NCBI GenBank assembly: GCA_964557115.1
Contig: CAZKYO010000014.1
Span: 6,144-70,143, forward strand
Origin: an uncultured Gemmatimonadaceae bacterium
GTDB taxonomy: Bacteria; Gemmatimonadota; Gemmatimonadetes; Gemmatimonadales; GWC2-71-9
Direction of reading: 5' to 3'
Length of the DNA stretch: 64,000 bases
Shown in pieces: positions 2,378 through 61,169 of the stretch. Each line of letters begins with the position of its first letter. Position 1 is the first letter of the stretch. The notes beneath the pieces were generated by a model. That model searched no databases and was not told the DNA's origin. It worked only from the letters and a program-made list of their open reading frames with translations. Position numbers and translations under genes: made by a program.

Positions 2378-5039
<2,662 letters not shown>

Positions 5040-15765: not shown

Positions 15766-15796
15766 AACGCCCGCTCGCCCGATACGCTTGCCGGCC

Positions 15797-16826
<1,030 letters not shown>

Positions 16827-16843
<17 letters not shown>

Positions 16844-17435
16844 CGCCGACGACCACGCCCTGGATCAGCACCTCGCTCTCCTGGAAGCGGAGCGGCCGCA
16901 TCGCGGCGTTGGCCGGCTGGAGCCGAATCCATCCGCCCGGTTCGCGGTAGAAGCGCTTGACCGTCGCCTCGCTGCCGTTGACGAGGGCGATCACCATCTC
17001 GCCATTGTCGGCGCTCTCGCGACCGTTGACCACGACCATGTCGCCGTCGGCGATCTGCTCGTCGATCATCGAGTCGCCGCGGACCCGCAGGGCGTAGTTG
17101 GGGCCCCGGCGCGGCAGCATGGCGTCGGGCACGGCGACGACCTCGCCGGCCATCACCGACTCGATCGGCAGGCCGGCCGCGACCGAGCCGAGCAGGGGAA
17201 TCTCGGTCGCGCCGATGCTACCTCGAGGGGGGAGCACCTCGACCGAGCGGCTCTGGTTGTAGGAGCGGCGGATGTAGCCCTTCCGCTCCAGATTGCTGAG
17301 ATGCTCGTGGACGGTGGCCAGCGAGGTGTAGCCGAAGTGCTCGGCGATCTCCTCGAAGGAAGGAGCGAAGCCCTGGCGCTCGATCTCGCCGCCAAGGTAG
17401 TCCAGCATCTCGCGCTGCCTGCGGGTCAGTGGCAC
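16827..17435 (-). CDS. lexA: SOS repressor LexA
   Basis: GTG start with GGAGG SD. wHTH LTRRQREML...PSFEEIA...SLATVHEHLSNLERKG, Ala-Gly cleavage site VAAGLP, catalytic GDSM and TVKR. Confidence 0.96.
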
Positions 17436-17451
17436 ATGGCCTCCAGCGTGG

Positions 17452-17493
17452 CGAAGATAACCCGAAAGTGAAGCTACCCGAAGGGAACCCGAA
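17452..17493. promoter_or_regulatory. Two copies of a 15-bp motif CGAAG-NN-AACCCGAA (candidate LexA operators) in the lexA/trpC divergent gap
   Basis: CGAAGATAACCCGAA at 17452-17466 and CGAAGGGAACCCGAA at 17479-17493. The first overlaps a minus-strand TATCTT -10-like element upstream of lexA. Confidence 0.65.
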
Positions 17494-17500
17494 GCGCAAG

Positions 17501-18286
17501 ATGGCTGTCCTCGACGTGATCCTCGATGCGACGCGCGAGACCCTCCCAGGGGTCCGATCCCGCCGGCGCGAGCTGGAGCGGATGGTGGCGACCCGGGTCC
17601 CCGGCCCCGATTTCATGGCGGCCCTCCGGCGACCCACCGTGGCGGTGATCGCGGAGGTGAAGCGGCGGAGCCCGAGCGCGGGGGCGATCAACGAGGGGCT
17701 CGACCCGTCGGCCCTGGCCATCGAGTACACCGCCGGCGCGGCCGCCGCGATCTCGGTGCTCACCAACGCCAGCCACTTCGGTGGATCGCTGCTCGACCTG
17801 GAACGGGTCACCGCCTCGGTTGCGGTGCCGGTGCTCCGGAAGGATTTCATCCTGGACGAGGTGCAGTTGCTGGAGGCGCGGGCCGCGGGTGCCTCTGCCG
17901 TGCTGCTGATCGTGCGTGCGCTGACCCAGGCCGACCTCGTCTCGCTCCTGGCTGCGGCCGAGGCGCTCGAACTCGGGGTCCTTGTCGAGACCCACACCGC
18001 CGAGGAGCTGGCGCGCGCCCTCGACGCGGGGGCGCGCGTGATCGGGGTCAATGCGCGCGACCTGGATGACTTCACGATCGACGTCGGGCGATCGCTCGAC
18101 CTGGTGTCGCGCCTGCCGACCGACGTCGTGGCCGTGGCCGAGAGCGGCATGGTGTCGCTGGCGGACGTGGAGCGGGCCGCCGGCGCCGGCGCGGACGCGG
18201 TGCTGATCGGCGGGGCGCTCGCGTCCGCCGCGGATCCGCGGTCCTCGTGTCGGTCCTTCGCGGAAGTGACGCGTCGTGGCCGTTGA
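17501..18286 (+). CDS. trpC: Indole-3-glycerol phosphate synthase
   Basis: MAVLDVIL, IAEVKRRSPSAG, ISVLTN..HFGG, LRKDFI, GVNARDL, AESG. Confidence 0.96.
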   Translation: MAVLDVILDATRETLPGVRSRRRELERMVATRVPGPDFMAALRRPTVAVIAEVKRRSPSAGAINEGLDPSALAIEYTAGAAAAISVLTNASHFGGSLLDLERVTASVAVPVLRKDFILDEVQLLEARAAGASAVLLIVRALTQADLVSLLAAAEALELGVLVETHTAEELARALDAGARVIGVNARDLDDFTIDVGRSLDLVSRLPTDVVAVAESGMVSLADVERAAGAGADAVLIGGALASAADPRSSCRSFAEVTRRGR

Positions 18287-60685: not shown

Positions 60686-60780
60686 GGTGAATCGAAGGTA
60701 AGCGGCCCGGAATGGGGCCTGGGACGGCGACGCCTTGCATCTCTAGCGACTTCGGCGTTTCTTCGGTAAGGCCTACCTCC

Positions 60781-60809: not shown

Positions 60810-61169
60810 ATGACTACTGGCACCCATCCCCACCACGGCATCGACTACATCGAATTCACCGTCACCGACATGCAGGCGGCCCAGGCCTTCTACGGGAAGG
60901 CGTTCGGCTGGGAGTTCACCGACTACGGCCCCGACTACGCCGGGATCCGGAAGGGCGACGGCGAGATGGGCGGCTTCCGCTCCGACATCCCGGTCAAGCC
61001 GGGCGGCGTGCTGGTGATCCTGTATTCCAAGGACCTCGCGGCGTCGCTCGAGGCGGTGCAGGCGGCGGGCGGGGCGATCACCACCGAGCCATTCGAGTTT
61101 CCCGGCGGGCGGCGCTTCCACTTCGCCGACCCGAGCGGCAACGAGCTGGCGGTGTGGTCGGAGCACTGA
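60810..61169 (+). CDS. VOC (glyoxalase/bleomycin-resistance) family protein
   Basis: IDYIEFTVTD, FYGKAFGWEFTDYGPDY, FPGGRRFHFADPSGNELAVWS. Confidence 0.92.
   Translation: MTTGTHPHHGIDYIEFTVTDMQAAQAFYGKAFGWEFTDYGPDYAGIRKGDGEMGGFRSDIPVKPGGVLVILYSKDLAASLEAVQAAGGAITTEPFEFPGGRRFHFADPSGNELAVWSEH

Follow-up and report, generated by a model that had tools for sequence, protein, structure and literature searches.

The LexA (DinR) box of Bacillus subtilis is CGAACN4GTTCG (PMC9578287, Table 1). A direct repeat, GTTC-N7-GTTC, is given for Alphaproteobacteria (PMC8565304), and the alphaproteobacterial and Acidobacterium capsulatum GTTC-N7-GTTC box is cited repeatedly (PMC8565304, PMC9578287, PMC7739468). 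For Balneolaeota, comparative genomics of draft genomes gave the direct repeat TTACACATATTTTWTACATA and a LexA regulon comprising recA, translesion polymerases, and a radical-SAM protein (PMC7739468); that paper also cites Patescibacteria (Sanchez-Osuna, Barbe and Erill 2017, Environ Microbiol 19:3465) and Acidobacterium as further independent cases of a direct-repeat LexA box (PMC7739468). No description of a LexA box from Gemmatimonadota was found in the literature that we searched. Duplicate copies of GTTC-N7-GTTC are common at the promoters of lexA and recA, for example at recA of Rhizobium and Rhodobacter. Here, we analyze two repeats that precede lexA in a 64,000-nucleotide stretch of DNA from an uncultured Gemmatimonadaceae bacterium (GCA_964557115.1, contig CAZKYO010000014.1, positions 6,144 to 70,143), hereafter referred to as the window. 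Comparison with related genomes indicates that they are very probably two LexA operators, each of the form TTCGG-N6-TTCGG. They would make up an autoregulated double SOS operator, which as a kind of element is ordinary, in a phylum-specific form.

A duplicated direct repeat upstream of lexA

The original prediction, which was made from the letters of the window, described two near-identical 15-mers that start 27 bp apart in a 65-bp gap, and both are present exactly as described. CGAAGATAACCCGAA (17452-17466) and CGAAGGGAACCCGAA (17479-17493) lie on the plus strand, are identical at 13 of 15 positions, and fall within the gap (17436-17500) that separates the lexA start codon (GTG, 17435-17433, minus strand) from the ATG of trpC (17501). 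Read along the strand of lexA, the sequence of the gap is CAT-c-TTGCGC-TTCGGGTTCCCTTCGG-G-TAGCTT-CACT-TTCGGGTTATCTTCGC-CACGCT-GGAGG-CCAT-gtg. The copy distal from lexA (operator 1) is an exact TTCGG-N6-TTCGG pair and, together with the G that follows it, makes up the whole 17-bp spacer between the predicted -35 and -10 elements. The proximal copy (operator 2) starts 4 nucleotides (nt) downstream of the -10 element, spans the predicted transcription start, and ends 15 nt before the GTG.

Two details of the original prediction had to be revised. It had placed the repeat in the register CTTC-N7-CTTC; the conserved unit is TTCGG-N6-TTCGG, in which conservation extends to the CGG but not to the base that precedes TTCGG. 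It had also taken TATCTT as the -10 element. This hexamer sits inside the proximal box and is replaced by TTCTCT or TCTATT in relatives, whereas the conserved -10 element is TAGCTT, which appears as TATAGT, TAATGT, TATGAT, or TAGCTT at the aligned position in relatives. The -35 and -10 assignments are predictions that come from comparison of aligned upstream regions. In the window, the loose motif CGAA-N7-CGAA is not enriched (three matches against 1.69 expected; 28 of 100 shuffles reach three). In contrast, the refined motif is enriched, with two exact matches against 0.14 expected and none of 100 shuffles reaching two.

For comparison, we used 80 related Gemmatimonadales loci whose LexA proteins are 66-93% identical; upstream sequence was available for 79 of them, giving 80 promoters with that of the window. 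At least one exact TTCGG-N6-TTCGG pair was present in all 80, at the position of the first pair, and a second pair with at most one mismatch was present in 75. The layout is shared by all 80 promoters: cTTGCnC (or TTGACC), pair 1, G, TAnnnT, a stretch of 1-4 nt (longer in a few loci), and pair 2. The pentamers are invariant, at about 2 bits per position. The N6 spacers, at near 0 bits, and the flanks are variable apart from a weak preference for T. This combination of invariant pentamers with varying spacers and flanks is the footprint expected of a protein-binding site. The CGG after TT is kept in 99-100% of sites in the first unit, and the last G of the second unit in 92%. The base before TTCGG is not fixed in either the first unit (A 29%, C 48%, G 12%, T 11%) or the second (A 27%, C 34%, G 27%, T 12%).

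The two units of a pair are 11 bp apart from start to start, or about one helical turn. The lexA sites have no conserved CCGAA or CGAA partner opposite TTCGG, and N6 is variable; the element is thus not an inverted repeat. Across 874,558 bp, searched on both strands, there were 141 exact matches to the motif, 139 of which fall within the 160 bp upstream of lexA.

The features of the window are listed in Table 1. On its other side, lexA is flanked by trpD, with which it overlaps tail-to-tail by 17 nt (16827-16843).

Table 1. Predicted features of the window at lexA and at the VOC-family gene
Feature	Position	Strand	Remarks
trpD, other neighbor of lexA	15788-16843	+	Flanking gene
lexA, 202 amino acids	16827-17435	-	Pfam PF01726 (LexA_DNA_bind) and PF00717 (Peptidase_S24); NCBIfam TIGR00498, 198.7 bits, cut-off 110.95
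lexA Shine-Dalgarno, GGAGG	17440-17444	-	4 nt before GTG; GGAG or GAGG kept in relatives
Candidate operator 2, proximal, TTCGGGTTATCTTCGC	17451-17466	-	TTCGG-N6-TTCGC, one mismatch
Predicted lexA -10, TAGCTT	17471-17476	-	Between the operators; TAnnnT conserved 17 nt after -35 in 80 upstream regions
Candidate operator 1, distal, TTCGGGTTCCCTTCGG	17478-17493	-	Exact TTCGG-N6-TTCGG
Predicted lexA -35, TTGCGC	17494-17499	-	cTTGCnC or TTGACC conserved in 80 aligned upstream regions; abuts trpC ATG
trpC, indole-3-glycerol-phosphate synthase	17501-18286	+	Divergent from lexA; Pfam IGPS, 243.9 bits
Exact TTCGG-N6-TTCGG box, TTCGGCGTTTCTTCGG	60751-60766	+	Ends 43 nt before ATG of VOC-family gene
Glyoxalase/bleomycin-resistance (VOC) family gene, 119 amino acids	60810-61169	+	Downstream of TTCGGCGTTTCTTCGG

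Occurrence of the box at recA and other genes

A metagenome scan in which the box had to precede the RecA peptide FGKGx[IV]M gave nine matches, and only one, the high-G+C recA of L217, was a recA gene of Gemmatimonadota; the other recA matches resemble chance. The N-terminal 71 residues of the L217 RecA were then used to collect 80 recA loci, nearly all labeled Gemmatimonadota and chosen without regard to the motif. In the 260 bp upstream of recA, an exact box was present in 30 of these loci and a box with at most one mismatch in 77. The density of exact sites was 1.445 per kb in the recA promoter windows, compared with 0.00094 per kb in the other 1.06 Mb, an enrichment of about 1,500-fold. 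The single exact site in that remaining 1.06 Mb (3061-3076, minus strand, in the Gemmatimonadetes metagenome-assembled genome L294) is itself about 78 bp upstream of recA, on the opposite strand, and is the only inverted box orientation among the 80 loci.

The form of the recA box depends on the lineage. In many Gemmatimonadales, it reads TTGC-TTCGG-N6-TTCGG-TATTAG. In Gemmatimonadaceae, it reads TTCGT-ATTTTG-TTCGG, with a -10 element, TATTTT, inside the box, and in Longimicrobiaceae it reads TTCGC-CTTATC-TTCGG. A small group (L241, L242, L257, L263, L276, and L300) has TTCGGTATATATTCGG, with TTTATA in L263.

Two further kinds of sequence were seen upstream of recA. Many Gemmatimonadales recA promoters (e.g., L248, L243, L251, L264, and L287, within the upstream 170 bp) have an additional element in two copies, one upstream of the -35 element and one in the 5' leader. 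The element is about 18 nt long, with sequences such as GTGACTCAAAATCAGTCAC and TGTAGCAAAATCAGCCAC, and may be the site of a second regulator. DnaA-box-like sequences, TGTGGATAA and TTGTCCACA, lie upstream of Gemmatimonadaceae recA (L217, 750-800; also L250, L254, L281, L260, L261, L271, L279, and L283), and in some loci they overlap the predicted recA -35 element TTGTCC.

A blind scan of 185,579 genomes for double boxes (two pairs 12-42 bp apart) returned at least 120 loci, with 10 from Gemmatimonadota among the matches listed; the scan offers no basis for an enrichment statistic. All 10 of these Gemmatimonadota loci are SOS promoters. Six precede lexA genes encoding more distant LexA proteins, three precede imuA-like genes, and one precedes dnaE2 (NF004225, 1028.6 bits against a cut-off of 939). 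The imuA-like gene encodes a protein with a RecA fold, whose match to ImuA_translesion (57-59 bits) falls short of the cut-off; downstream of the gene are an imuB-like gene of the Y family and dnaE2. A query for imuA-like genes returned 12 loci, some of its peptide patterns being unspecific, and 11 imuA-like loci were judged. An exact box lies within 130 bp upstream of the gene in 9 of the 11. In the other two, the box precedes a radical-SAM gene of the Rv2578c/PA0069 family, which heads a string of genes in the same orientation that includes imuA. Radical-SAM genes are separately boxed in L207 and L211, and dnaE2 is boxed in L193 and, with a box of its own, in L211. Searches of the window and the 80 lexA loci with E. 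coli RecA, SSB, RuvA, RuvB, UvrA, UvrB, DinB, and RecN (tblastn) found none of these genes.

The window itself contains a second exact box, upstream of a gene of the VOC family (Table 1). Orthologs of this gene in L303 and L305, retrieved by exact look-up, are each preceded by an exact box, which ends 36 nt before the ATG. Neither locus has another site with at most one mismatch in 6.4 kb, and the neighboring genes differ between the loci. L303 shares a 1.07-Mb contig with the closest relative of the window, L001, and the upstream sequence of a third ortholog (L304) is too short to judge. The VOC-family gene is a probable lineage-specific LexA target.

Outside Gemmatimonadota and Patescibacteria, the double-box scan listed at least 100 matches, which are mostly 11-bp tandem arrays or coding sequence and not SOS promoters. 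TTCGG arrays with an 11-bp period and no SOS gene nearby occur in several other phyla (L127, Bryobacteraceae; L136, L161, L141, L134, L122, and L179) and look like iterons or microsatellite-like repeats. Because such arrays lack SOS genes, the bare motif outside Gemmatimonadota and Patescibacteria is no evidence of a LexA box. In a Bacteroidetes metagenome-assembled genome (L138, 4453-4512), a distance of 178 nt separates TTCGG repeats from a divergent UmuD/S24-peptidase-like gene, perhaps by chance. One exact TTCGGGTTACGTTCGG, with no obvious promoter around it, is present at position 11106 of L081, in the first 50 kb of the 1.1-Mb plasmid 1 of Gemmatirosa kalamazoonensis (NZ_CP007129; unannotated in PLSDB).

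Comparison with described LexA proteins and boxes

The reading-helix segment of the window LexA is SLATVHEHLSNLERKGYI, and that of Gemmatimonadota is SLATVHEHL. The Patescibacteria LexA proteins that we examined have the reading helix (S/A)TVHEH(L/I) and thus share TVHEH with Gemmatimonadota. An Acidimicrobiales LexA (L094) has SSTVHAHL and GAAC-N4-GTTC in its own promoter, and a Paracoccaceae LexA (L194) has SKSGIHRLI and a promoter with GAAC-N7-GAAC. The DNA-binding domain of the window LexA is 46-48% identical to those of Patescibacteria, 43% to that of Acidimicrobiales, and 33% to that of Paracoccaceae. When the window LexA was compared with plasmids, only matches of at most 41% identity were found.

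The promoters of Patescibacteria examined here resemble those of Gemmatimonadota in the box as well as in the TVHEH helix of the protein. Exact TTCGG-N6-TTCGG occurs on lexA promoters of Kerfeldbacteria and Saccharibacteria (L095 and L106) and on a dinB promoter of Blackburnbacteria (L108). The L095 promoter, TTGACA-TTCGGGTTTTGTTCGG-G-TACCCT, has the same layout as Gemmatimonadota lexA. However, the two phyla are very distant and the full-length LexA proteins of the window and Patescibacteria are only about 41-48% identical. The likeness may reflect common descent, transfer, or convergence. In four Saccharibacteria loci (L084, L113, L137, and L139), a double TGTTCGG-N6-TTCGG is followed by a conserved 'acagggaaaac', with no long open reading frame within 250 nt; these double boxes may control a small gene or RNA under SOS control.

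The half-site also resembles that of the Gram-positive box represented by B. subtilis. The two share the core TTCG/CGAA, overlapping GTTCG, and the reading helices are of the same type, S-x-x-TVH-x-HL. They differ in arrangement: the Gram-positive half-sites are inverted, 9 bp apart from start to start in a 14-bp box, whereas those of Gemmatimonadota are head-to-tail with an 11-bp period. Head-to-tail rather than inverted half-sites imply that the two DNA-binding domains are oriented differently relative to each other. The most economical reading of these sequences is that Gemmatimonadota LexA would use a Gram-positive-like reading head, with its two DNA-binding domains placed head-to-tail one helical turn apart. 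A broader proposal, which we advance tentatively and do not favor outright, is that TTCGG-N6-TTCGG is the recognition mode of a single (S/A)TVHEH LexA lineage spanning Gemmatimonadota and Patescibacteria, in which a Gram-positive-like head and TTCG half-site are bound head-to-tail. If so, the switch from palindrome to direct repeat would have come about through a re-oriented DNA-binding domain and not through altered base readout, and the lineage would reflect either ancient shared descent or transfer of lexA between the two phyla.

The alphaproteobacterial and A. capsulatum box is alike in being a direct repeat with an 11-bp period and a TTC core, and repression by promoter occlusion would be common to both. 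In contrast, the Gemmatimonadota unit is TTCGG, with an invariant CGG after TT and no preference for G before TTC, and the reading helix is SLATVHEHL instead of the SKSGIHRLI of the Paracoccaceae protein. We therefore rejected membership in the alphaproteobacterial GTTC family: both the GTTC unit and the LexA type are absent, and the architecture alone is shared. The original prediction was of a variant LexA operator for this lineage. A lineage-specific LexA operator with an 11-bp-period direct repeat, duplicated over the lexA promoter, is supported by its presence in all 80 lexA promoters and at 77 of 80 recA loci; a simple variant of the alphaproteobacterial box is contradicted by the unit and by the reading helix. 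Of the occurrences that it pointed to elsewhere, those upstream of lexA orthologs, at recA, and at dnaE2/imuAB were found in relatives, the last before imuA-imuB-dnaE2 and before dnaE2; a radical-SAM repair gene is boxed there as well. The Balneolaeota motif is likewise a direct-repeat LexA box, but its sequence (TTACA/TACATA units) is unrelated.

Proposed repression mechanism and alternative explanations

Each operator would be a head-to-tail TTCGG pair with both half-sites on one face of the helix, and presumably one LexA dimer binds per pair. Operator 1 would lie within the spacer between -35 (TTGCGC) and -10 (TAGCTT) and operator 2 over the transcription start, so that bound LexA would exclude RNA polymerase and shut off lexA in a negative autoregulatory loop. 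DNA damage would lead to RecA-stimulated self-cleavage of LexA, freeing the lexA promoter. The same box is predicted to control recA, imuA-imuB-dnaE2, dnaE2 alone, the radical-SAM repair gene, and, within this lineage, the VOC/bleomycin-resistance-family gene, which together with lexA make up the regulon predicted so far. The box is restricted to promoters of SOS genes. This canonical LexA gene set, the position of the box on the core promoter of lexA itself, its recurrence in Patescibacteria, and its Gram-positive-like half-site point indirectly to LexA as the binder.

Several points weigh against this interpretation. Operator 2 is mismatched in the window and in its closest relatives, L001-L009 and L047, which have the TTCGC variant in common (TTCGT in L004). 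A consensus scan of 17350-17600 for promoters and terminators found nothing, the -35 element TTGCGC being under the scan threshold; with no sigma-70-like promoter in the gap by this measure, the predicted overlap of operators and promoter depends on the comparative alignment. RNA runs (metatranscriptome contigs) contained only fragments of the lexA coding sequence of relatives, leaving the promoter uncovered and giving no transcription start. The evidence for a regulon comes from loci of relatives, save for the VOC-gene box of the window. Finally, binding of LexA to TTCGG-N6-TTCGG is itself deduced from sequence.

This last point leaves some room for another regulator, one that recognizes tandem repeats and governs lexA, recA, and the mutasome genes, with LexA using another site or none. 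Direct repeats are also unusual for a dimeric helix-turn-helix repressor. We nevertheless consider such a regulator unlikely. The boxed genes are the canonical LexA regulon, the box sits on the core promoter of lexA in 80 of 80 cases, and the same box recurs with the same LexA reading helix in Patescibacteria. In addition, the half-site resembles the Gram-positive LexA half-site, no further conserved element was seen to be shared by the promoters of lexA, recA, and imuA, and other phyla provide established examples of direct-repeat LexA boxes (PMC8565304, PMC7739468).

Instead of a repressor site, the repeats could be promoter elements, such as alternative sigma sites or an UP-like element. 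In every case they are located within or beside core promoter elements, and the consensus scan yielded no good sigma-70 promoter in the window gap. However, an 11-bp period does not fit -35/-10 geometry, and separate conserved -35-like and -10-like hexamers stand beside the box. The position of the box relative to TTG...TAnnnT also differs among the lexA, imuA, and recA classes; it may be in the spacer, across the -10 element, or wholly downstream of it. A box that shifts relative to -35 and -10 between genes is better explained as an operator than as a promoter element, making the latter very improbable.

It is similarly hard to credit that the repeats serve trpC, as a trp regulatory site or ribosome-binding region, and are next to lexA incidentally. 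Operator 1 comes to within 7 bp of the trpC ATG, and the order trpD, reversed lexA, trpC is kept in 55 of the 80 lexA loci, with lexA-trpC gaps of 63-142 bp. However, the 25 loci in which lexA was not found beside a divergent trpC have the boxes just as the others do, indicating that the boxes travel with lexA, and they also occur on recA, imuA, and dnaE2 promoters with no trp genes nearby. On this evidence, we rejected both a trpC-specific function and an alternative-sigma promoter element. Chance similarity or a functionless local duplication has next to no likelihood: CGA- and GAA-rich strings are common at 71.5% G+C and CGAA-N7-CGAA is not enriched in the window, but no shuffle reached the count of the refined motif, the pentamers are invariant over 80 diverged promoters with variable spacers, and the enrichment at recA is about 1,500-fold.

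Two LexA operators thus remain our preferred explanation of the repeats, and bound LexA may have a secondary influence on the expression of trpC. The lexA -35 element touches the trpC start codon, so that the ribosome-binding region of trpC shares sequence with operator 1, which is on the opposite strand. This abutment (CAT-cTTGC) is seen in the window and in many relatives. The lexA-trpC gap is 63-87 bp in most loci and 109-142 bp in eight Gemmatimonadaceae loci; it is filled by the lexA promoter and operators, with no obvious room for a trpC promoter. Transcription of trpC may run antisense through lexA, and bound LexA may then act as a roadblock.

LexA boxes vary by phylum, and each new box lets a DNA-damage regulon be read from genomes. 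Soil and activated sludge harbor abundant Gemmatimonadota, but few members of the phylum are in culture, and TTCGG-N6-TTCGG would permit regulon prediction in hundreds of their metagenome-assembled genomes. The window alone holds two predicted SOS-controlled promoters, those of lexA and of the gene at 60810. The box would also enlarge the small set of direct-repeat LexA motifs. With its Gram-positive-like half-site and reading helix, it may offer a good system in which to study how the half-sites of a dimeric repressor change from inverted to tandem.

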